From positions 1 through 20,320 of IMG/VR virus record IMGVR_UViG_2565956608_000010: a stretch of DNA of 20,320 nt; one strand, given 5' to 3'. Below the pieces are notes generated by a model that had not been told where the DNA came from, did not search any database, and saw nothing but the letters and a program-made list of their open reading frames with translations. Below are positions 1-12,587 of the stretch, one piece after another (position 1 is the first letter of the stretch; each line of letters opens with the position of its first letter). The position numbers and the translations under genes were made by a program. Source of the DNA: a virus (Duplodnaviria > Heunggongvirae > Uroviricota > Caudoviricetes).

Positions 1-35
1 TTTGTATGGTATGTAGCTGACACCTTCCAGGCCAT
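1..35 (-). CDS. 5' end of a leftward ORF running off the left edge (ATG at 35..33, [11 protein letters not shown]...); possibly the next lysis-cassette gene
   Basis: ATG followed by open frame to the window edge, 70 nt downstream of the holin-like stop; only 11 codons visible, so identity cannot be assigned. Confidence 0.2.
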
Positions 36-106
36 CGTTACCACTTGGTCCAGTGATTAACACAGATGCTATAGCAATAGCCCCGCCACTTATCGCCGCT
101 ATTACG

Positions 107-310
107 CTATTTCGTAGTGCCGGTGACATTGCCATTCAATCTGTCCTCGCGCTCTTTGCGCTTGTAGTACCAGTTGATGCCAAATGTGCCGACAGTACAA
201 AGAATACCAATGATGACAGCCCAGTCATTCAGGGAGAGAATGCCACCCATCGCAGTCAGTCCTCCGAAGCTGTAACTGAACCATTCTCTGATTTTGTCCA
301 TACGGTACAT
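107..310 (-). CDS. putative holin (67 aa small membrane protein with charged C-terminal tail)
   Basis: Six-frame ORF; hydrophobic segment [28 protein letters not shown] followed by a charged tail [10 protein letters not shown]; lies downstream of Q on the same strand, where lambdoid lysis cassettes begin. Confidence 0.5.
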
Positions 311-766
311 GCTCTACCCCTTCATTGAGGGGATTTGCTCTATTTAATTAGGAATAAGGTCGATTACTGATAGAACAAATCCAGGCTACTGTGTTTAGTA
401 ATCAGATTTGTTCGTGACCGATATGCACGGGCAAAACGGCAGGAGGTTGTTAGCGCAACCTCTTGCCACCCGCTTTCACGAAGGTCATGTGTAGAAGGCC
501 GCAGCGTAACTATCACTGATGAATTCAGGATAGCCAGTGGCTACGGCTCAGTTTGGGTTGTGCTGTTGCTGGGCGGCGATGACGCCTGTACGCATTTGGT
601 GATCCGGTTCTGCTTCCGGTATTCGCTTAATTCAGCACAACGGAAAGAGCACTGGCTAACCAGGCGCGCCGACTCTTCACGATTATCGACTCAATGCTCT
701 TACCTGTTGTGCAAATAAAAAAAGCCACCGTTGCAACTTAAGAGTCACTAACGGCAGCTTACATCT

Positions 767-1279
767 TTAAACGGTATGATATTTCATTCTGGCTGCCTCA
801 AAAGCCGCAGCGGCAAGTTCGGCAGTGTCATGGTATCCAAGGTTAATACACTTTCCAGACGCATTAATTCTTGCTCTCCATTTCCCGTACTTAGCATCCC
901 AAGACACGCCACGGTATCCAGATTTATTATTCTTCTGAATTTTCCTGTTTTGCATATTTTCGGAATGAGTGACAAGACGAAGATTTGATATCCGGTTATC
1001 TGTTCTTACCCTGTTGATGTGATCAATAAAACCATCGGGCATGGTGCCATAAACAATCAACCATGCCAGTCTGTGAGCAGGGCATGCTTTACCATTAATC
1101 ATAATCATTAAATACCCATCAGAATTTATTGATGAGCATTTCTTGAAAGCAAAACGAGAGTTCCATGTCAAAGTGGTCCTCTCTCTCCCCTGCCTCCATC
1201 TCCAGTGAAAGTCGCCTGATGATGGATTGTAATCAACAACAGAAAGCACCATTTCTGGCGTTAATTTTATTTCTTTCAT
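767..1279 (-). CDS. HNH homing-type endonuclease with C-terminal AP2-like DNA-binding domain (170 aa)
   Basis: HNH motif AHRLAWLIVYG...FIDHINRVRTDNRISNLRLVTHSENMQN, then GYRGVSWDAKYGKWRARI...LGYHDTAELAAAAFEAA typical of the AP2 domain in phage HNH endonucleases. Confidence 0.8.
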   Translation of the reverse strand: MKEIKLTPEMVLSVVDYNPSSGDFHWRWRQGRERTTLTWNSRFAFKKCSSINSDGYLMIMINGKACPAHRLAWLIVYGTMPDGFIDHINRVRTDNRISNLRLVTHSENMQNRKIQKNNKSGYRGVSWDAKYGKWRARINASGKCINLGYHDTAELAAAAFEAARMKYHTV

Positions 1280-1400
1280 CGCTTTACCTTAGGGATAGAG
1301 CCTGTTCGCGTAGATATGACAGCCAAGAGCGGAGCGATGTTTCCACCACCATATCTCAGGCCCATATCACTAAGACTCTTGTTTTGATTGCACGCGAATG

Positions 1401-1426
1401 CAAAAAAGCCCACAGGAGGTGGGCTT
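1401..1426 (-). terminator. Rho-independent terminator on minus strand just downstream of Q (candidate tR')
   Basis: Plus strand reads AAAAAA then AGCCCAC-AGGAG-GTGGGCT (7-bp stem 1407..1413 / 1419..1425, 5-nt loop); on the minus strand this is a hairpin followed by a U-run. Confidence 0.6.
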
Positions 1427-1473
1427 GTGATGGTTGCTGAATGCAAAAGCAGCAGCATATGTGAATATTATGG

Positions 1474-1992
1474 CTAAATGGCTAATTGCATGTCAAGACT
1501 TTTAACAGCAACATGCTTAACTTTCTCAACACGTTTACGCATTTTGAAAGCATTTTGCATTGGTTGGTACAAAACAAATAACGACGCTTTCAGGATGTCG
1601 TCAATTTCGTTTCTACAGGTTGCCATTGAAGGTTTTCTCCATCCCTCGCCACCACGTCCACACATCTTGCGTGGCTTTGCAGTCGCGTGATAGTAGGATG
1701 CAATTGCTCGCTTAGATGAACCATGAGCGTAGTAGCTGAGGAGGATGCCAAAGGCTTTCTTGTCAATGTACATGACGGAATCGACGACCTGAGAAATCAA
1801 CATTCCATCATCATCATTACACATTGGCCTTGTCATAACTCTTCCCGGCTCTACGCTCTCCATGAACTTCGCTATTACGCTGCTCATGCGCTTTTCCAGA
1901 CGACCTGAATAAACCCATGCGCCCCACAGTTCAAGCCAGCCATTCAGCCACTCATGCTGTTCTTTGGTGAGGTTTAGTTCTCTTATGCCCAC
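1474..1992 (-). CDS. Q: late-gene antiterminator Q (phage 21 / 933W-type Q family)
   Basis: Motif [10 protein letters not shown]...[17 protein letters not shown]...LLSYYAHG resembles the 933W-type Q that I recall (WGAW, RPQCCDDD, LLVDYYV); sits between the nin genes and the lysis genes. Start codon uncertain: the track ORF begins with GTG and overlaps ninI by 10 nt. Confidence 0.7.
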
Positions 1993-2654
1993 GCGCCTTC
2001 TCCCTGTACCTGAATCAATGTGAGATTTCCGCAGAACACTGCGCCGGTATCGATATACATCTGGTTGGCAAATTTGAGCGGTTTCACTGCTGGCGTATGA
2101 CCAAAGATGAACATGTCCGCGCCTTTGATTTCTTTCACGATCCCGTCTTGTGAGTTGCTGATTCGTTCGCGGTTCCAGATTACCTGCTGATGATCAACTG
2201 GCTTTCCAAACTCGTATTCGTCACAAGGATAATCGGCGTGGCAGATGACATATTTTTTATCTTTGCTCACCAGTTCGATGATTAACGGAAGTTCATCTGC
2301 TTTATGGGCAAGAGCTTTAGCCAGAATTTCTTTGTCGTAATCGAGATTAAAGAACCAGCCACCGCCATTAAGCAGCCAGTGATTGACGTTTCCACGCTCT
2401 GATAAGCCATCAATCATCATGTGCTCATGGTTTCCACGTACAGCTCTGAACCAGGGGAATGTGATTAATTCCAGGCATTCAACGTTCTCTGCACCACGAT
2501 CAACCAAATCGCCAACCGAGATAAGCAGGTCTTTTTTGGTGTCGAATCCAATCGTATCCAGTTTGTTCATCAGGTTCGTGTAGCATCCGTGCAGGTCGCC
2601 AGCTACCCAAATATTTCGGTATTTGCTGCCATCAATTCTTTCGTAGATATTCAT
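1983..2654 (-). CDS. ninI: NinI serine/threonine protein phosphatase (lambda PPase homolog, 223 aa)
   Basis: Near-identical to lambda phosphatase as I recall it ([30 protein letters not shown] metallophosphatase motifs); start overlaps the ninG stop (ATGA). Confidence 0.95.
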
Positions 2655-3262
2655 GCTGCCTCACTTCTGCTGTTTCGCAGATTTTTAAGTTTCTGCTGAT
2701 ACTCCGCCTTGATGGCCCTGCACTCTTCGACAGTCCAGCGATGGCGGTTATGGTTTAATTCGATTTCGTCTACTGCTTCCTGCCCGATGCGATTAATCAG
2801 TTCGACGCGATACGGAACGAGATTTCCGCTTTTGTGCTGGTTGCACACCACGCATTGCTTGTGAATATTGCGTTCATCAAATCGGAGTTGAGGTGCCGCA
2901 GCAGTTGTCCGGTAATGTCCGGCATCCCACTGAGCAGACGTGAGCGTTCCGCACGAGATACATGGTAAGTCGCGGTCTCTTTCTCTGATGAAGGCGTTTA
3001 CGGCTTGTTGGGCTTGTTTAATCCAGTAACTGCGGGGCTTTAAGGCGAGTTTTCGAATCTTAAGTTTATCTTTCTGTTTCTGCTCCTCTCGTCGTCGTTT
3101 CTTCTCTGCTGCTTTTTCCGCTTTTTCGCGTTCTTTACTTCGTCGTTCGAGTGCTATCTTGGTTCCACACTCTGGAGAGCACCACCACTGATTAGCGAAT
3201 GCAGGATGAAACCATTCCCGACATTTATCGTTTTTACATCGTCTTCGCGCTGGTTTAGCCAT
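2651..3262 (-). CDS. ninG: NinG (Rap) recombination-associated protein, 203 aa
   Basis: Cys-rich N-terminus ([12 protein letters not shown]...WCSPECG) and central CISCG...CVVCNQHK match lambda NinG; ATG overlaps the ninF stop. Confidence 0.9.
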
Positions 3263-3425
3263 CGTCTTCTTCCTCGTGCATCGAGCTATTCGGATCGCTC
3301 ATCAGTTCTGCACAGCAGTGCTCACACACGTGAACTTCCAGCACATGCAGCTTCTGACCGCAGTTAGCGCACGTTAAAGCTCGCTCGACGCTTTCTTGTT
3401 CGTAACTTCGATTTTGGTCAATCAC
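3255..3425 (-). CDS. ninF: NinF (56 aa, GTG start)
   Basis: Manual translation gives [56 protein letters not shown], matching lambda NinF; GTG start overlaps the ninE stop (GTGA). Confidence 0.8.
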
Positions 3426-3604
3426 CTTGTTTTCCTCGCACGTTCTCTAAGCCACCGGATATCCCACAGGTGAGCCGTGTAGTTGAAGGTTTTTACGTCA
3501 GATTCTTTTGGGATTGGCTTGGGTTTATTTCTGGAGCGTTTCGTTGGAAGGTATTTGCAGTTTTCGCAGATTATGTCGGTGAAACTTCGTCGCTGTCGTC
3601 TCAT
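3422..3604 (-). CDS. ninE: NinE (60 aa)
   Basis: Internal Met of the 80-aa track ORF gives [60 protein letters not shown], near-identical to lambda NinE; ATG overlaps the ninB stop. Confidence 0.85.
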
Positions 3605-4041
3605 GCCGCCCTGTCTCCCCATCGCGCTTTCCATTCGAGAGCCAGTCGCGCTTCGTCTGACCACTTAACGCCACGCTCTGTACCGAATGCCTGTATAAGC
3701 TCTAATAGCTCCGCAAATTCGCTTACACGCATCCTGCTGGTTGACTGGCCTATTACCACAAAGCCATTCCCGGCAAGGTTAGGAACAACATCCTGCTGCT
3801 TTAATGCTGCGGTAAACACACACTTCCAGCTTTCTGCATCCAGCCAGCGACCATGCCATTCAACCTGACGAGAGACGTCACCAAGGCAAGCCCAAAGCTT
3901 TCGATTCTGGTCTAAGCTGCGGTTGCGTTCCTGAATGCTTACTACGATTGGTTTGGTTGGGTCTGGAAGGATTTGCTGGATAGCTTGAATGGCGTTCTGC
4001 TGATGGATGGGGCTTCTTAGTTCAAATGTTAGTTTCCTCAT
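3601..4041 (-). CDS. ninB: NinB recombination protein (146 aa)
   Basis: From [34 protein letters not shown]... the sequence is near-identical to lambda NinB; the upstream extension of the track ORF is assumed not translated. Confidence 0.9.
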
Positions 4042-4210
4042 CACCCTTAATCCTCTCGAAGTTCTTCTCGAAGTTTTTGGTGTCGAACACTGACCACCGA
4101 CCATTATGAATGGCGTATGCACAGGTCTTGTTTTCGTCCTGATAAACTACCCTTACCTTGCGATAAAACCGTGGCTTAATCTCTCTGAATATTTGCTCGC
4201 TCATGCTCAC
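4022..4210 (-). CDS. hypothetical protein (62 aa)
   Basis: ORF with RBS AAGGAG 5 nt upstream of the ATG; overlaps the ninB start by 20 nt; no family recognised. Confidence 0.5.
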   Translation of the reverse strand: MSMSEQIFREIKPRFYRKVRVVYQDENKTCAYAIHNGRWSVFDTKNFEKNFERIKGDEETNI

Positions 4211-4214
4211 TCCT

Positions 4215-4430
4215 TCACTTTAAATCCAGACTCCGGATTATTCTGTTGCGCTGAAACTCATTGTTGAGTCTGAACAACCGCCGAAGAACACGGTCACGCG
4301 GATAGCGTCGTGCGGCAGGTGAATGCTCATACAACTCATCAAGCGGTAAACTGGACGATGAACGATACCGATACCAACGCGCCAACTCTTCACGAAAATT
4401 AGCCCTGACAAGCTCAGCTATCGTACTCAT
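4215..4430 (-). CDS. hypothetical protein (71 aa, basic/Arg-rich)
   Basis: ORF with strong RBS AGGAGG 8 nt upstream of the ATG; no family recognised. Confidence 0.55.
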   Translation of the reverse strand: MSTIAELVRANFREELARWYRYRSSSSLPLDELYEHSPAARRYPRDRVLRRLFRLNNEFQRNRIIRSLDLK

Positions 4431-4555
4431 TTCTTAAAACCTCCTAAAACGCATTCTGACGAACTTTTACATCTCGCCACCCAATTACATGCCTGAGCAA
4501 TGATTAGGTCGCCACAGGCTTATTTATGTGGCTTAAAATCGATTTTGCTTACATA

Positions 4556-4586
4556 CAAACAAAAGACCTGCGATTACCAGCAGGCC
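4556..4586 (-). terminator. putative Rho-independent terminator downstream of HNH endonuclease 2 (possibly bidirectional)
   Basis: Hairpin GGCCUGC / GCAGGUC (7 bp with one G-U pair, 8-nt loop) followed on the minus strand by UCUUUUGUUUG; on the plus strand the same hairpin is followed by a T-run (4587..4599). Confidence 0.45.
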
Positions 4587-4587
4587 T

Positions 4588-5199
4588 TTATCTTTTTTTA
4601 ACACGCTTTCGAGTCCTTTTAGATTTTTCCTTAAGATATTCCGCAAGTTTATCCTCATCATTATTAAATTGAGATAAAAGCTCATGCTCGCAATTAAGTG
4701 CTTTACTCGCATAAGTTCCATATAGTTTCTTTCTTGCTAGTGCTGCTATGAATGCTGCATCTTCTTTGCTATCGAAATACCCTAACGATATTGTCTTATT
4801 TTTATAACCAACATAAGACTTCCACCTGCCAGTTGTCTTATCCCAAGACACTCCAATCGCACCGGATGTGTTTAACCTATTCCCTACAATGTTTCTTGCA
4901 TTCTGCTCCTCTGTTGCCAGTCTTAGATTTGAAATCCTATTGTCAAGTCTGTTCCCATTTACATGATCAATAAACTTAGGAGGCCATTTTTTGTATACAT
5001 AGAACCAAGCAAGTCTATGCGCATAATACAAAACATTATTTATGCTAATGCATATATAACCACCACTAACACCTCCAGCAATACTACCTTTTACTCTTAC
5101 TACTGAATTTGTTTTTAGCCATTTAAATATTCCTGTTTCTGAGTCATATGATAATGTTGACAGAAGCTCATCGTGATCAATTAGTTTTTTTATTCGCAT
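4588..5199 (-). CDS. HNH homing-type endonuclease with AP2-like domain, second copy (203 aa), AT-rich
   Basis: AHRLAWFYVYKKWPPKFIDHVNGNRLDNRISNLRLATEEQN (HNH) and GVSWDKTTGRWKSYV...LGYFDSKEDAAFIAALA (AP2-like); same architecture as 767..1279; codon usage looks AT-rich compared with the neighbours. Confidence 0.8.
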   Translation of the reverse strand: MRIKKLIDHDELLSTLSYDSETGIFKWLKTNSVVRVKGSIAGGVSGGYICISINNVLYYAHRLAWFYVYKKWPPKFIDHVNGNRLDNRISNLRLATEEQNARNIVGNRLNTSGAIGVSWDKTTGRWKSYVGYKNKTISLGYFDSKEDAAFIAALARKKLYGTYASKALNCEHELLSQFNNDEDKLAEYLKEKSKRTRKRVKKR

Positions 5200-5277
5200 A
5201 AAGAATATACTTAATAATATATACAGTAAGAACCATTAGTAACGATAACCCTGCTATCAGCTCAGTGATGTAGATAG

Positions 5278-5547
5278 TCATTGCTTCATCTCCCTTTCCA
5301 TTTCATCAATGTCAACGTCATCAGGAAGATGGGAGCAATACGCCGCTATACCATGATGATTTATCTCATACCCTTTGAACGTTACCATCTGGCGCGTAAT
5401 CTCAACTTCGTTCAGGAATCCGTCATCGCATAACTGCCTGGCTATTTTCGATTTGGTCTGGATTATTGGTAGTGCCTGTTCTTTCAAAGCGTATGATATT
5501 TGTGCATCCCATGCCTTTTCGAGAATGGCTAATTGTTTTTTATTCAT
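5278..5547 (-). CDS. hypothetical protein (89 aa)
   Basis: ORF whose ATG directly abuts the primase-helicase stop (TAAATG); no family recognised. Confidence 0.5.
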   Translation of the reverse strand: MNKKQLAILEKAWDAQISYALKEQALPIIQTKSKIARQLCDDGFLNEVEITRQMVTFKGYEINHHGIAAYCSHLPDDVDIDEMEREMKQ

Positions 5548-7428
5548 TTAATACTCCGTCACGTTTTCCTGTCGCCACGCCTCGTCATATTCCGATTTCG
5601 GCATATTGGCGATGTAGCTATATGGCGATCCTGATTCAAGTTGCAGGAACTGGTGCGATTGCTCGTCAAGGAACAACGGGATACCACCTTCCCAACCTTC
5701 ACCGTTACGTTGTTTTTCAAGCAACAAAACAGATGCCGGAGACACCAGTAGCTGTTCGTCCTTCTCTGACATCTGTTCACCGCTTTGAACTCTCTGTAAC
5801 GCTCTCTCGCGAGCCTTGTTACGCCAGATGATAAAAAGGTTGTCTGTCAGGTCTGTTATCGCTCCAGAGCCTTTTACGTCCATTTTCCCGGTTGGTTTTT
5901 CTTCGCTGTCTCCTTTTCGCGAGTGAGTAACGAGAATGACGTGGGAGTTTGTTTTGTTTTTGAAGTCGCAAATCGAGTCAACAAACGCCTTCTGCCCGTT
6001 ATAGTCATCGTCGCCTATGCCACATTTCATCAGGCTGTCGATGATGAATAACTGGATACCGTATCGGCGGCGAGCGTAGTCGAATATTTCGATCAGCCTG
6101 TCGGCTTTCGCCGTTCCGGTCAGGCCAAACACCCAAAGTCTTTCGTCATAAAATTTAAATGCAGAGTCAATTTCCAGCACTGGCGGCATCTTGCAGCACG
6201 TCGCCTGACGGGTAAGGCGCTTAAGGAGAATACCAGGCTTCAGCTCAAGTGACGCGATGCACGTCTTCACACCCTGACGCATTGCCTCAAGTGCCATATG
6301 CCCGACAACCTCCGTTTTTCCGTGACCGTTCACACCATTGACCAGCGTCAACTCGGCCTCACGGAACTGGAATTTATCTGCCAGAGATTCCCACGGTGGA
6401 TTAAACAGATACTGCTGCTTGCCGTAGAAAGCGTTGATAGTGTCCTGGTAAAACTCTCGCGCGCTGTAGAGTTCTTCAGGATCGAAGTAGGATGCCGTGC
6501 CGATGTACTGCCAGATTTCATCCTCGGTAACACCGTTCATCAGGCATTCGTTGATGTCTTTGTACGGCAGAGTAACAAGACGGCAACGATGTTCACCGAG
6601 TCGGCTTGCGATTTCCCTTGCGGCTTCACGACCAACATCATCAACGTCCATCGAGATGAATATTTCCTCAAACCTGTCGAGGTTGTGATACTCAAACTCA
6701 ATCCACTGCTGCTTAGCGCCTTTCCCGCCACCAAACGGCACGGATAACGCCGAGATGCCGTATTGCGCATAGCTCATACAATCAATTTCGCCTTCGCAAA
6801 GTACAACCGCCCTCACGCCAGCGTCCAGAGCCTGCCATCCGAACAGACAAGGTTCGCAATCACCTTCTGCCATAATGACTTTCTTCCCGTCCGGGCGCTC
6901 AGTGCTGATTCGCTTGACCTGCAACAACTCACCATCGCGTTTGTACGGAATCACCAGAGCATCCAGTTCCCGCTCTCCATTCCACACCTTGCCGCTGACA
7001 ACCTCGTAGCGCTTTACGATTTCTGGCGATATGCCACGCGATTGCAGGTACTCAAGATGGGATTCTGTTCTGGTAACGTAGCGGGCGATTTTCTTGCGAT
7101 CAGGTCTGGAGAATTTCTTCTCACGTCTGGCATCGAAATGGTGATCGTCATCCTTGATACCGAGAAATGCTTTCGCTTCCTGCATAGCCTGATGCAGGTT
7201 AATTCCACGACATGCCATCCACAAATCAAGCATGTCACCGCCGTCTCCCTCAGCGAAATCAGCCCATTTTTTCTTGCCGCTAAGGTTGACCTTAAGGCTG
7301 TTTCCCTTGTCACCGTTGACGTTACCGGCAACCCACTCATGCCCCTCTTTCTTGCCATTTGGCAACAGGTGCGGAGCCACCCTGTCAACCTGCGCCCAAA
7401 GCAGGTCGCTAAGTTCACTTGGCCTCAT
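5548..7428 (-). CDS. bifunctional DNA primase-helicase (N-terminal primase-like region, TOPRIM, C-terminal P-loop ATPase), 626 aa
   Basis: TOPRIM-like acidic motif VVLCEGEIDCMS; Walker A LVNGVNGHGKTE; Walker B-like LFIIDSLMK; RBS GAGGGAA before the ATG at 7428; occupies the position of lambda O/P. Confidence 0.8.
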   Translation of the reverse strand: MRPSELSDLLWAQVDRVAPHLLPNGKKEGHEWVAGNVNGDKGNSLKVNLSGKKKWADFAEGDGGDMLDLWMACRGINLHQAMQEAKAFLGIKDDDHHFDARREKKFSRPDRKKIARYVTRTESHLEYLQSRGISPEIVKRYEVVSGKVWNGERELDALVIPYKRDGELLQVKRISTERPDGKKVIMAEGDCEPCLFGWQALDAGVRAVVLCEGEIDCMSYAQYGISALSVPFGGGKGAKQQWIEFEYHNLDRFEEIFISMDVDDVGREAAREIASRLGEHRCRLVTLPYKDINECLMNGVTEDEIWQYIGTASYFDPEELYSAREFYQDTINAFYGKQQYLFNPPWESLADKFQFREAELTLVNGVNGHGKTEVVGHMALEAMRQGVKTCIASLELKPGILLKRLTRQATCCKMPPVLEIDSAFKFYDERLWVFGLTGTAKADRLIEIFDYARRRYGIQLFIIDSLMKCGIGDDDYNGQKAFVDSICDFKNKTNSHVILVTHSRKGDSEEKPTGKMDVKGSGAITDLTDNLFIIWRNKARERALQRVQSGEQMSEKDEQLLVSPASVLLLEKQRNGEGWEGGIPLFLDEQSHQFLQLESGSPYSYIANMPKSEYDEAWRQENVTEY

Positions 7429-7535: not shown

Positions 7536-8333
7536 TCACCTGTCGAAAAACACGTAGCCAGTTTTCGATACGGTGATTGCGGATGATGGTTTGGATTGTG
7601 GTTGAATGGTTTCTGGCTTTTCGTCGTTCCAGCGCTGACCTTTCAGGTAGCTCGATGGTAACAACCTGTCGAATCCAAACTGCTTACCATTCCTGCATGC
7701 GATGTCTTCTGCCAGCATCGTGGCAAACTCGCTTGCCGTACCCCTGGTAGTTTTACGCCATTCCCTGAACTGTGTTCTGAATGCCGACGCTGCGTTTTTC
7801 TTCCCGGCCTTCCGCATGCCTGCACACCAGAATATTTCCTCGAATGCCTTGTCGGTTTCTTCGTGACGGTCAGGAGTTTTTTCACACTCCGTTCGGACAT
7901 GTTCGAACATAATGTTTTTAGGTTCATTGACTGGTTCAAAAGAGTGATAGGTTCTGGGGGCAGCTCCTGCCCCACCCCCTAGGGCAGCTCCTGCCCCACC
8001 CCGGGCAGCTCCTGCCCCACCCCGGGCAGCTCCTGCCCCACCTGATTCTGGTGGGATTTGTTGTGCATTATCCAGCGTCAGATAAAAAACGTTTGACTGG
8101 TTAAGCTCTCCTTTTCTTCTGCATTCCCTTTTCAAAAGACCCATCTCTTCCAGTGCCCTAATGTGACTTTTTACTGTCGATCTGCTCACCTCACACTGGT
8201 CAGCGACATGTTGATATGAAGGCCAGCATTCGCCATTATCATTGGCGTTATCGGCAAGTTTAATCAGAACCAGTTTTCTCAGTGGGTTGCCAACCTTTAT
8301 ATTCATGGCCTTAGCCATAAGATTCATGCTCAT
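7536..8333 (-). CDS. putative replication initiator / origin-binding protein (HTH N-terminal domain, Gly/Ala repeat linker), 265 aa
   Basis: N-terminal winged-helix-like segment (LVLIKLADNANDNGECWPSYQHVADQCEVSRSTVKSHIRALEEMGLLK); contains the iteron array in its coding sequence (translated as GGAGAARGGAGAARGGAGAALGGGAGAA); sits upstream of the primase-helicase in the lambda O position. Confidence 0.65.
   Translation of the reverse strand: MSMNLMAKAMNIKVGNPLRKLVLIKLADNANDNGECWPSYQHVADQCEVSRSTVKSHIRALEEMGLLKRECRRKGELNQSNVFYLTLDNAQQIPPESGGAGAARGGAGAARGGAGAALGGGAGAAPRTYHSFEPVNEPKNIMFEHVRTECEKTPDRHEETDKAFEEIFWCAGMRKAGKKNAASAFRTQFREWRKTTRGTASEFATMLAEDIACRNGKQFGFDRLLPSSYLKGQRWNDEKPETIQPQSKPSSAITVSKTGYVFFDR
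7956..8042. repeat. four tandem direct repeats of about 21 bp (GGGCAGCTCCTGCCCCACCCC), each with internal dyad GGCAG-CTC-CTGCC; putative ori iterons
   Basis: Unit starts at about 7958, 7982, 8003 and 8024 (periods 24, 21, 21), read directly; a more AT-rich stretch follows at about 7895..7950; arrangement parallels lambda ori inside gene O. Confidence 0.7.
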
Positions 8334-9231: not shown

Positions 9232-9948
<717 letters not shown>

Positions 9949-10116
9949 TTGTGTGAAACAGGCTGCAGAAATGCAGTCTTTTTCGGTTATCGATGTCACC
10001 ACTGGTAAATCGTTTACCATAAGTCTTGATCTATTTGGTTTACCGTGTCACTCTTGGTGCACCACTTTACCAATGGTAAAACATTAACCAGCAATGACAT
10101 CGTTAACCAGGAGTTT

Positions 10117-11139
10117 ATGATGAAGAAATATGCTATATGGAACAACAAGGGAGGAACAGGGAAAACAAGCCTGTCATTTCAAGCTATTTGCAGATATGCA
10201 GAAATTCACCCGCTTGAGCGCGTGTTGGTTATTGATGTGTGCCCACAGGCAAACTTGTCAGAGCTTTTTCTTGGGGGGTTAATAGGTAATGGAAGCATAA
10301 ACTTATTGACTAGGCATGATATAAATAATAGATGTACTTTGGGTGGCTACTTCCAAATGCGCCTCCCGACGCCTTATCAAAAACCCATTGTTGATGCCCA
10401 CGATTATTTGACACACCCAAAAAAATTCAACGAACATATTCCAGCCAATATATCGTTGGTATGCGGTGACCCGCTTCTTGAGCTTCAAGCAAACGCCATC
10501 AACACTCTTGCTAATCAGCAGATTCCAGGAACAAATGCATGGGTAAGCATCATTGATTGGATTAATGATCTTATTAAAGATCTAAATGATGAGTACGATG
10601 TTTTATTTATTGACTGTAATCCTAGTTTTTCAATTTATACTCAAATAGCATTAGCTGCTGTAGAAAAGCTCATCTTGCCAGTTATGGCTGATGATTCCTC
10701 TCGTCGCGCCATTCAAAATGCTTTCTCTTTGATTTATGGATTAAAGTTGCCATCTGATATTTATGCATCCTACGCATTTGCAAACAAACTTACCGCGGTG
10801 AGCAGACCACTACCCAAAGTTCATATGATCGCAAAAAACCGTCTTACACAGTATATGGGGCCTGCATCAGCCTATGCCGCAGTTCTAAAATCAATCGATA
10901 ATGATATTCAGCAACTATTACTAAGTAACCCTGAAATTTTCGACTTCGAAAATATTGAAGAGGGAGTGGTAAATATTAAAGATTTTCAGACAACTGGTGT
11001 TGTTGCCTTTGCTAAAGGATGTCCATTTTCGATCCTACCAACAGGTAGTGTACGAGTTATGAACAGAAGGGTAAAAGTTAATGCCCCATATAAACAATCT
11101 TGCTTAGAAGCCATTGATAGGATGGTGGTTAAACTATAA
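10117..11139 (+). CDS. ParA/MinD-like P-loop ATPase (340 aa from MMKKYAIWNNKGGTGKTS) in the rexAB position; function unknown, candidate exclusion/defence gene
   Basis: Deviant Walker A KGGTGKTS near the N-terminus, ParA-type motif VLVIDVCPQANLS and later VLFIDCNPS; RBS AGGAG 4 nt upstream of ATGATG at 10117; AT-rich by eye; flanked by the cI terminus and a terminator before OL. Confidence 0.7.
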   Translation: MMKKYAIWNNKGGTGKTSLSFQAICRYAEIHPLERVLVIDVCPQANLSELFLGGLIGNGSINLLTRHDINNRCTLGGYFQMRLPTPYQKPIVDAHDYLTHPKKFNEHIPANISLVCGDPLLELQANAINTLANQQIPGTNAWVSIIDWINDLIKDLNDEYDVLFIDCNPSFSIYTQIALAAVEKLILPVMADDSSRRAIQNAFSLIYGLKLPSDIYASYAFANKLTAVSRPLPKVHMIAKNRLTQYMGPASAYAAVLKSIDNDIQQLLLSNPEIFDFENIEEGVVNIKDFQTTGVVAFAKGCPFSILPTGSVRVMNRRVKVNAPYKQSCLEAIDRMVVKL

Positions 11140-11642: not shown

Positions 11643-12026
11643 ATGACACGCAGAACTCAGTTCAAAGGCAATTCACGTTCTCGTCGTCGTGAGCGTTTAA
11701 AGGCAAAGGCATTAGCTAACGGCGTGCTGGCCCGCGAAGAAGCAATAAGTTCAGAAGTATTACACCGCCCTACTCTAAGCAGAGCGCAGATTCAGGCTAA
11801 AGGTACTCACGAAACGCCTGAGCGCATAGAAGACGCTAAGCCAATTAAGTTCATGGCACAGGACGTGATCTGGCAACAGAAAGAATACAGACGCAATCTG
11901 GAGCGAGCGGCCATTGTGTACGCGAATGAGTTTGGACATAAGCAACCAGAAACTGGTGTATGTCTTCCAAACGTAGCCATTTACGCGGCAGGCTACCGGA
12001 AATCCAAACAACTGACGGCGAGGTGA
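11643..12026 (+). CDS. N: N-like transcription antiterminator (127 aa, arginine-rich N-terminal motif)
   Basis: First gene of the pL operon after a ~240-nt structured leader; Arg-rich motif TRRTQFKGNSRSRRRERLKAKALA; RBS AGGAGG before the ATG; not lambda N by sequence but the same position and features. Confidence 0.75.
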   Translation: MTRRTQFKGNSRSRRRERLKAKALANGVLAREEAISSEVLHRPTLSRAQIQAKGTHETPERIEDAKPIKFMAQDVIWQQKEYRRNLERAAIVYANEFGHKQPETGVCLPNVAIYAAGYRKSKQLTAR

Positions 12027-12047: not shown

Positions 12048-12587
12048 CTAAATTAGCTCATCAGCTTTACCAGCAAAGCGCATATAACACTCATGGAACC
12101 AGACGTCAGGTATAACAAATTTCTCTCTACCTGACGCGCTGTAAGTCACACCTGAGCGATGGAGAAGGCCTTTTCTCATAAGAGATAAAGCGACCGGATC
12201 GCCGTGCTTAAGTACGATTTTGTTATTTGCCATAACAGCAAATGCTAAAACCTCTTTTTCCTGAATACTCAGAGAATTGAACAGGCGCTCAGTCTCCACA
12301 ATTACTTTAGCCTCATCTCTCTTACTGAGATATTTTTTATATCTGTCTGAAGATGCCAGAAATATAAACTCCATCACCCTGTTCAGAACATAACTGATAC
12401 ACAAAAGCATTGCGTAATACATCCAGTGATCTGGAAGTATTTCTGGGTTCCTTATATCTACCCACTCTTTAATTGATGCGGGGGTGATTATTATCAAGGC
12501 AATTAAAATAATAAGCATATGAATTAACTGTTGTAGCGTAAGACCACGCAGGAAGAAACGTAATAGTTCCTGCCACCAGTTACTCAT
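12048..12587 (-). CDS. SieB-like superinfection exclusion membrane protein (179 aa)
   Basis: Convergent, tail-to-tail with N as I recall lambda sieB being; hydrophobic helix LIHMLIILIALIIITPASI; assignment by position and topology, not by recognised sequence identity. Confidence 0.45.
   Translation of the reverse strand: MSNWWQELLRFFLRGLTLQQLIHMLIILIALIIITPASIKEWVDIRNPEILPDHWMYYAMLLCISYVLNRVMEFIFLASSDRYKKYLSKRDEAKVIVETERLFNSLSIQEKEVLAFAVMANNKIVLKHGDPVALSLMRKGLLHRSGVTYSASGREKFVIPDVWFHECYMRFAGKADELI

Follow-up and report, generated by a model that had tools for sequence, protein, structure and literature searches.

Two HNH-AP2 endonuclease genes occupy discrete cassettes at fixed linkers of a lambdoid Escherichia coli prophage

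The stretch of DNA analyzed here, the 20,320 nucleotides of IMG/VR record IMGVR_UViG_2565956608_000010 (hereafter the window), belongs to a lambdoid (P22/lambda-mosaic) Escherichia coli prophage, spans integrase to holin, and contains two open reading frames (ORFs), HNH1 and HNH2 (Table 1), each encoding an HNH nuclease domain followed by an AP2 domain. Each gene sits in a discrete cassette that is present in some phages and prophages and precisely absent from others: HNH1 has the antiterminator gene Q upstream and a class II holin gene downstream, and HNH2 has a primase/helicase gene and a PHROG 2239 gene (5278–7428) on one side and the DUF7301/NinB genes (3601–4430) on the other. On balance, we favor an interpretation in which both are free-standing homing-endonuclease-type genes, acquired independently of each other as discrete cassettes at fixed lambdoid linkers.

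An original prediction, made from the sequence of the window, had described both ORFs as HNH-plus-AP2 endonucleases, and this was confirmed at the coordinates it gave. In each case a Pfam HNH_3 domain (PF13392; cut-off 24.8 bits) is followed by an AP2 domain (PF00847; gathering score 33.3 bits): HNH1 matches these at 3.8e-18 (65.3 bits) and 1.6e-08 (35.1 bits), respectively, and HNH2 at 8.1e-16 (57.8 bits) and 1e-07 (32.6 bits, marginally under the AP2 gathering score). Both also match PHROG 99, ‘HNH endonuclease’, at about 1e-72. In an alignment of 31 family sequences, collected by two database searches, D86, H87, N99 and N111 (HNH1 numbering) are invariant and N108 is nearly so; HNH1 and HNH2 have all of these residues, which correspond in alignment to the D-H...N...N motif of I-HmuI, made up of the catalytic Asp-His, a structural Asn and a metal-binding Asn; the catalytic stretch of HNH2 reads IDHVN...NLR...EQN and its counterpart in I-HmuI VDH...NLR...KIN. 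The AlphaFold2 model of HNH1 (predicted local distance difference test score 90.7) has I-HmuI (1u3e) as its best match in the PDB (probability 1.00, 107 columns, E = 1.3e-3), covering HNH1 residues up to about 110; the template modeling score is only 0.36 because the C-terminal domains differ. The C-terminal 50 residues of the model match the plant AP2 domains of AtERF1 and TEM1 (root mean squared deviation 1.5–1.6 Å), and there is also a sequence match to the AP2 domain of WRI1. HNH1 and HNH2 are I-HmuI-like HNH_3 nucleases fused to an AP2 domain, with their catalytic residues intact. Passages in two papers that both cite Magnani et al. 2004 (PMC10448857, PMC5714182) treat the combination of an N-terminal HNH and a C-terminal AP2 domain as a recognized homing endonuclease family.

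BLASTP aligns HNH1 and HNH2 over 161 aa at 40% identity (E = 5e-33), and HNH2 is among the least HNH1-like of the aligned members (39%, versus 35–69% for the others) in a family that amounts to 1766 database clusters at E ≤ 1e-10 with HNH2 as query. They are no nearer to each other than to family members of unrelated bacteria, which argues for independent acquisitions and against duplication within one genome. The description of the pair as paralogous therefore holds in the sense of common family membership, but not in that of a shared local origin.

At the first site, a cassette of 704 bp stands where the Sf6-type empty allele has 6 bp, TAGAAG: homology with Sf6 breaks off right after the −10 element of the late promoter pR′ (1467) and picks up again at 762. 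An imperfect direct repeat of 8 bp marks the two ends of the cassette, reading TATGCTGC at the left end and TAAGCTGC at the right end. The promoter pR′ and the end of the Q gene overlap; the Sf6 record labels the homologous promoter ‘nearly identical to phage 21 late promoter’, and the qut site and terminator are also phage-21-like. The promoter spacer holds two adjacent 8-bp direct repeats, ATTAGCCA (1486–1479) and TTTAGCCA (1478–1471), and according to the structural paper on Q21 the Q binding element is formed by two 8-bp subsites in direct repeat that lie within −40 to −1 of pR′21. In diverged loci the spacer repeats change together with the type of Q, which fits their assignment as a putative Q21 binding element.

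Cassette 1 opens with a −10-like hexamer, TATGCT (1459–1454), 7 nt past the −10 element; this spacing equals that of TAAGCT in the Sf6 leader, and the hexamer may serve as a replacement pause element. An intrinsic terminator, here called ‘B’ (stem 1426–1406 plus T-tract; fold z = −3.9), is separated from the HNH1 start by about 120 nt of untranslated sequence. The HNH1 stop codon is followed by 4 bases and then by the resident late leader, preserved from its own pause-like TAAGCT (761–756) through the terminator tR′ (‘A’; fold z = −3.1). The gene is thus flanked by two terminators, of which the upstream one is cassette-borne and the downstream one resident; terminator scanning and folding returned hairpins at 1426–1406 and about 760–719, and a third, at the second site, at 4589–4562. 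The original prediction correctly placed HNH1 between Q and the holin gene, but the terminator upstream of HNH1, which it had assigned to Q, arrives with the cassette, and tR′ lies downstream. Its proposal that HNH1 is transcribed with the late operon agrees with the order of elements upstream of the gene, namely pR′ (11 of 12 consensus positions), Q21-type repeats and then a terminator, from which late expression would be expected. The terminator annotated in HK629 (window 1402–1424) coincides with ‘B’; the pR′ of the same annotators (window 1309–1314) was not adopted, as it clashes with the phage-21-type promoter overlapping the end of Q. A promoter scan revealed no promoter-like site other than pR′ 5′ of the HNH1 or HNH2 start codon, and a tRNA search of the Q–holin interval found none.

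HK629 gp61 (AFM76545.1) is 99.9% identical to the window over the 704-bp cassette. The site is filled in HK629, E2348/69, VR50 and 41 of 5426 complete E. coli genomes (44 places), 39 genomes having the complete 704 bp at no less than 99% identity, and it is empty, with TAGAAG, in Sf6, Oslo and others. E2348/69 displays the exact Sf6 arrangement, including tRNA-Asn and tRNA-Thr, plus cassette 1. Given 839 places with a Q21-type Q, a contiguous empty junction in 696 genomes and HNH1 at 44 places, about 5% of Q21-type sites in E. coli are occupied. In 38 viral contigs the cassette always follows a Q21-type Q and always precedes the resident terminator, with flanks that switch upstream of Q (NinI or NinH), after the terminator (tRNAs or an unrelated segment) and at the holin. 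Orthologues of HNH1 with 61–70% identity, from E. coli, Serratia, Pantoea and metagenomes, lie directly after Q and before the lysis genes; a relative with 47% identity is not in the Q–lysis slot.

Several other arrangements were seen around this site. In one genome, WCHEC115106, the cassette leader and terminator ‘B’ are joined directly to sequence normally found 3′ of the resident terminator, most simply a deletion between two GGCTTTTTT tracts. The PhiR12 phages (PhiR12_1, locus L007, 2000–2255) and NCTC9112 (NZ_LR134079.1) contain the HNH1 leader and the first 68 nt of the ORF only, and in PhiR12_1 unrelated DNA adjoins this remnant, with a large CP-933V-type ORF downstream. The VR50 prophage (L010, 10946–12174) is 99.6% identical over window 1–2200 and has both HNH cassettes, with an IS3-family element between HNH2 and the primase/helicase gene. 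In related prophages (L052, L054, L056–L059, L103), additional HNH_3 genes, of which some also encode AP2, lie between Q and NinG or NinH, making the stretch from nin to Q in lambdoid phages a recurrent landing zone for these nucleases. Immediately behind the resident late terminator, a hairpin of about 80 nt (631–711, minus strand; minimum free energy −30 to −41 kcal/mol in L001, L009, L056 and L057) takes the slot that tRNA-Asn and tRNA-Thr occupy in Sf6 and E2348/69; its stem of 18–20 bp is conserved, with compensatory changes in Serratia, and its interior of 35–45 nt is wholly different in each phage.

At the second site, window 4561–4587 and 5250–6000 are contiguous in Stx phage 24B (BLAST), leaving about 660 bp extra here. 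The left junction of this cassette fades over 5250–5258 and the right junction is the stop codon. The cassette is inserted within a small hydrophobic ORF starting ATGACCATCTACATCACTGAGCT (MTIYITEL), immediately 5′ of the hairpin AGGCCTGCTGGTAATCGCAGGCCTTTTT, and the target sequence ATAACAGG is present imperfectly on both sides. It also restores this 34-aa ORF, whose 5′ 23 nt are resident lambdoid linker and whose remainder, which overlaps the HNH2 start, belongs to the cassette; the post-junction codons IAGLSLL... resemble the displaced ITGLLVI.... The ORF start and the hairpin both recur in lambda, between ren and ninB, and the empty 24B allele contains the hairpin too; we take this hairpin to be lambda tR2, and its sequence serves as a terminator cassette in transcription templates. 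The presence of a tR2-type terminator in HNH-free alleles means that the one after HNH2 is resident, not its own as first proposed, whereas the AT-richness of HNH2 (GC 0.35–0.38, versus 0.45–0.52 for the flanks; HNH1 0.42–0.44) and its location between the nin and replication genes were as described.

HK022 gp57 (AUM59825.1) is 99.1% identical over cassette 2, and copies in Stx phages are 98.2–98.5% identical. The site is filled in HK022, PA28, 1717, SH2026Stx1 and other Stx phages (annotated as HNH or homing endonuclease) and empty in phage 24B and lambda. HNH2 was found in 126 of the 5426 E. coli genomes (138 places) and the tR2 linker core at 2950 places, an occupancy of about 5% of tR2-linker sites. 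Across 30 viral contigs the constant block is window 5281–4561, comprising the ORF start, HNH2 and tR2, and the DNA varies on both sides of it. The replication module upstream may consist of P22-type genes, as in HK022, of lambda O/P/ren, as in PA28, or of a primase/helicase gene, as here, the last with the PHROG 2239 gene in some contigs and lacking it in others. A relative with 62% identity (P0124; L106, 3001–3516) lies directly after the same type of primase/helicase gene; its first ~60 residues are those of HNH2 and the rest has diverged, which points to a chimera formed by recombination within the ORF. In another locus (L136) the HNH2 copy is cut after 22 codons. Downstream of tR2, a third variable patch (4445–4560) measures 116 bp here and 19 bp in 24B; in PA28 and Stx2_16002 it spans about 380 bp and includes an extra ORF.

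Both cassettes end within 0–10 nt of a resident intrinsic terminator. Mosaic joints lie 0–70 bp from the cassette ends at both sites, in agreement with the suggestion that the insertions mark recombination breakpoints; copies are 98–100% identical amid unrelated flanks, and neither the holin nor the presence of tRNAs is constant from copy to copy. Both genes are polymorphic, being present or absent at a defined site in otherwise homologous genomes, with base-level junctions, and the precise empty alleles (Sf6 and Oslo at the first site, 24B and lambda at the second), found together with intact catalytic residues, bear out their character as insertions. Full-length, catalytically intact ORFs have persisted in the same slot through 30–40% protein divergence, which argues that the protein is under selection.

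The sequence between the late promoter and HNH1 is more conserved than the gene itself. From about +1 to the start codon (1280–1466, roughly 190 nt), nucleotide identity among E. coli, Serratia and Pantoea prophages is 90–95%; in the same leader-bearing loci (L052, L053, L056, L057, L059, L100, L103) the HNH coding sequence is 40–80% identical and the protein 61–70%, and the promoter and Q binding element differ. The consensus fold is a long hairpin that base-pairs the Shine-Dalgarno region (97% of cells paired), with compensatory changes at two pairs. Indels of 1–2 nt between lineages indicate that this conservation is non-coding on either strand: they break the frames of both a 60-aa ORF (1276–1458) and an opposite-strand ORF (1165–1440), which were thereby rejected as its cause. 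The 5′ untranslated region (5′UTR) of HNH1 matched nothing in Rfam, whether the window was searched at the gathering threshold or 250–1600 at permissive E-values, where the hits were sub-threshold noise. All leader matches sit upstream of HNH1 or of the 61% orthologue; no leader lacking an HNH1-clade gene was found among viral contigs (39 loci), species-representative genomes (0 matches) or metagenomes (5 loci), so these searches added no diversity for covariation analysis. Judged from its sequence, the leader is probably a part of cassette 1 that acts as a translational throttle. It is also possible, and we put this forward tentatively, that the HNH1 element forms a self-contained module, with pause element, terminator, 5′UTR of ~120 nt and nuclease gene, that replaces the late leader and is lodged between pR′ and the resident qut/tR′ with Q antitermination unbroken, and that its leader is an undescribed functional RNA: either a riboregulator gating translation of the nuclease or, as a short transcript from pR′ to the terminator, a conserved phage small RNA like StxS.

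In the mechanism that we propose, the two genes would be expressed at different stages. HNH2 lies within the early operon of pR, directly before tR2, a position that implies co-transcription with the replication genes. The HNH1 cassette would supply a sigma-dependent pause element at the correct spacing together with its own terminator; with these replacements, Q loading and Q dependence would be kept and HNH1 would be expressed only after Q antitermination, its translation probably being damped further by pairing of the ribosome-binding site in the 5′UTR hairpin. When two phages co-infect a cell, or a phage meets a prophage, each enzyme would nick or cut the cassette-free allele at or near the empty site, and recombination functions encoded in the window (Rad52-like recombinase, single-stranded DNA-binding protein (SSB), NinB and NinG) would repair the break from the cassette-bearing genome. 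Such repair would copy the cassette along with flanking markers and could thereby make the mosaic joints found there.

A number of observations weigh against this interpretation. The literature yielded no cleavage, nicking or homing data for the HNH1 or HNH2 alleles, no characterization of lambdoid nin-region HNH genes and nothing on the HNH gene of HK629. Each cassette is found at one site only, between conserved linkers, where homologous recombination could spread it without nuclease activity; near-identical cassettes with mosaic joints are compatible with homing, and ordinary recombination at conserved linkers explains them equally well. Truncated copies (HNH1 in PhiR12_1 and NCTC9112, HNH2 in L136) indicate that loss is tolerated. 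The covariation seen in the 5′UTR hairpin falls short of significance, as the observed score is reached by 43 of 500 shuffles in an alignment with little variation, and the pause element and Q binding element were assigned from sequence and from the Q21 paper.

The cassettes might instead be passive mosaic modules (‘morons’), kept or lost by homologous recombination at the pR′/tR′ leader and the small-ORF/tR2 linkers, their present spread owing nothing to the nuclease, which may be inactive or purposeless. The restriction of each cassette to a single site, embedded in sequences common to hundreds to thousands of prophages, fits such an account, as do the truncated remnants and the likely deletion derivative in WCHEC115106. 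We nevertheless regard it as rather unlikely: full-length ORFs with intact catalytic residues are present in 39 of 41 genomes with HNH1 and in 126 of 126 with HNH2, catalytic ORFs are also kept in the 61–69% orthologues, implying selection on the protein, and occupancy of fixed sites is predicted by homing as well. In the strict sense of an autonomous promoter–gene–terminator insertion, neither gene is a moron, as neither is flanked by a promoter and a terminator of its own; the terminators 3′ of HNH1 and HNH2 are resident and present in empty alleles.

Less probable still is a function as weapons of competition or exclusion. Made during infection, or by the prophage owing to leaky transcription across the constitutive pR′ leader, the nucleases would cut the DNA of related superinfecting phages, to the benefit of the host phage and not of cassette copying. 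pR′ is a promoter outside prophage repressor control and HNH1 lies behind a single terminator downstream of it; the prophage also has SieB and other exclusion-type genes, and nuclease genes at exchange boundaries serve in phage conflicts (PMC10448857). However, a second terminator, together with a hairpin that covers the ribosome-binding site, suggests tight repression in the lysogen, and such a function overlaps mechanistically with homing and marker exclusion in a manner that sequence alone cannot separate. Some phages need HNH proteins to cleave cos, and AP2 domains bind DNA, so that a role in phage DNA metabolism, like that of terminase-associated HK97 gp74, or as AP2-type transcription regulators could also be considered; we judge this very improbable. 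Neither gene adjoins the terminase gene, which in VR50 lies beyond the lysis cassette, and both are located in regulatory or replication regions; they belong to Pfam family HNH_3 (I-HmuI group) and not to the packaging-associated type, and conservation of the catalytic residues counts against a purely regulatory role. Furthermore, about 95% of otherwise equivalent prophages lack HNH1 or HNH2, so the genes are dispensable. Independently acquired genes of homing-endonuclease type remain the interpretation that we prefer.

HK629 gp61, HK022 gp57 and Stx phages 1717, PA28 and SH2026Stx1 have essentially the same alleles at the same sites, with no difference of substance; the window prophage has both cassettes, like E. 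coli VR50, and nuclease cassettes set just before a resident terminator are ordinary for such phages. As both alleles are already recorded as HNH endonucleases in GenBank/RefSeq entries for classic phages, and the domain architecture is that of a described family, novelty is low; the base-level anatomy and a leader more conserved than the protein are, as far as the literature was searched, undescribed, and are modest findings. I-HmuI of SPO1 (PDB 1U3E) shares the N-terminal beta-hairpin, the beta-beta-alpha-metal nuclease and the D-H...N...N motif, but it is an intron-encoded nicking enzyme with helical/helix-turn-helix DNA-binding modules instead of AP2 and is about 20% identical to the window enzymes; HNH_3 and I-HmuI are classed together in His-Me finger group 2 (PMC5714182). 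The ‘IPA-HNH’ genes of vibriophage ICP1 have the same HNH–AP2 order and are likewise free-standing and found at boundaries of genetic exchange, but their HNH domains are too divergent for the Pfam HNH_3 model (PMC10448857), which the window genes match strongly, and ICP1 is lytic whereas the hosts here are temperate lambdoid phages.

The mob/seg genes of T4-like phages (intronless homing) are also intergenic cassettes that are present or absent between collinear relatives; these elements cut neighboring conserved genes, and their nuclease/DNA-binding combinations differ from those of the window. RNA hairpins that cover the ribosome-binding site restrict the expression of T4-type endonuclease genes, and the hairpin proposed for HNH1 would be analogous. 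HNH1 shares its slot with lambdoid late-leader cargo such as stx and tRNAs after pR′–tR′, represented by tRNA-Asn and tRNA-Thr in Sf6, Oslo and E2348/69 and by a CP-933V-type ORF in PhiR12_1; such cargo lies downstream of the resident tR′, whereas HNH1 lies upstream of it, between the −10 element and the resident pause element.

The remaining genes are arranged as in Table 1. Transcription of the minus strand begins with cro, cII and an O-like initiator gene with iterons (7536–8333), in which a 21-bp unit repeated 3.9 times (7958–8042, 95% matches) specifies the GGAGAA... repeats in the protein and presumably constitutes the origin iterons. Between cI and N, a low-GC stretch (0.37–0.41) contains a gene for a ParA/MinD-like AAA_31 ATPase (10045–11139, plus strand), whose location in the position of lambda rexAB suggests that it may be a defense or exclusion moron.

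Table 1. Features of the two cassette sites and other genes of the window
Feature	Position	Strand	Basis or remark
HNH1, HNH_3 + AP2 endonuclease gene, 170 aa	767–1279	−	HK629 gp61 allele
HNH1 cassette, 704 bp	763–1466	−	Pairwise BLAST and direct reading against Sf6, Oslo, HK629 and E2348/69
Late promoter pR′	1467–1496	−	−35 TTGACA 1496–1491, −10 CATAAT 1472–1467; promoter scan, 11/12 consensus matches
Cassette-borne late leader	1400–1466	−	Pause-like element, small hairpin, intrinsic terminator ‘B’
Conserved 5′UTR of HNH1	1280–1399	−	Long hairpin can pair Shine-Dalgarno (AAGG)
Resident phage-21-type late leader remnant	712–762	−	98% identical to Sf6 (L002) 1901–1950, annotated late leader terminator/qut
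HNH2, HNH_3 + AP2 endonuclease gene, 203 aa	4588–5199	−	HK022 gp57 allele
HNH2 cassette, about 660–670 bp	4588–5258	−	BLAST against empty 24B allele and alignments
Small hydrophobic ORF, 34 aa (MTIYITEL...)	5177–5281	−	HK022 gp56 allele; alignments, HK022 annotation, lambda sequence
Resident intrinsic terminator, lambda tR2 equivalent	4552–4589	−	Terminator scan and fold; one G-U pair, weaker T-tract
Class II holin (HP1/P22-type), first lysis gene	107–310	−	Pfam Phage_holin_2_3 4.4e-21
Q, phage-21-type antiterminator	1474–1992	−	Pfam Phage_antitermQ 1.1e-25; Sf6 gene 59 region 98.6% identical
DUF7301/NinB genes	3601–4430	−	Followed by NinG, NinI phosphatase and Q
PHROG 2239 gene	5278–5547	−	
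Primase/helicase, 626 aa	5548–7428	−	
cI	9235–9948	+	
N	11643–12026	+	
SieB	12048–12587	−	Sits amid plus-strand genes
Nmad5-domain gene		+	Beyond N
Rad52-family recombinase, SSB, exonuclease		+	After Nmad5-domain gene
AntA antirepressor		+	Before integrase
Integrase	19247 to window end	+	

The two ORFs are thus standard selfish nuclease cassettes and not medically relevant cargo in a toxin slot, and their practical value is modest. Homing has been studied mainly in lytic T4-like phages, and the filled and empty alleles, defined here to the base, make a homing assay straightforward in genetically tractable lambdoid phages. The leader that outconserves its protein is a small, concrete lead toward a regulatory RNA. 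The anatomy of the first site suggests how a cassette may be tolerated where the regulation of a lambdoid phage is most sensitive, between the late promoter and its Q-loading pause site, namely through a substitute pause element and terminator.

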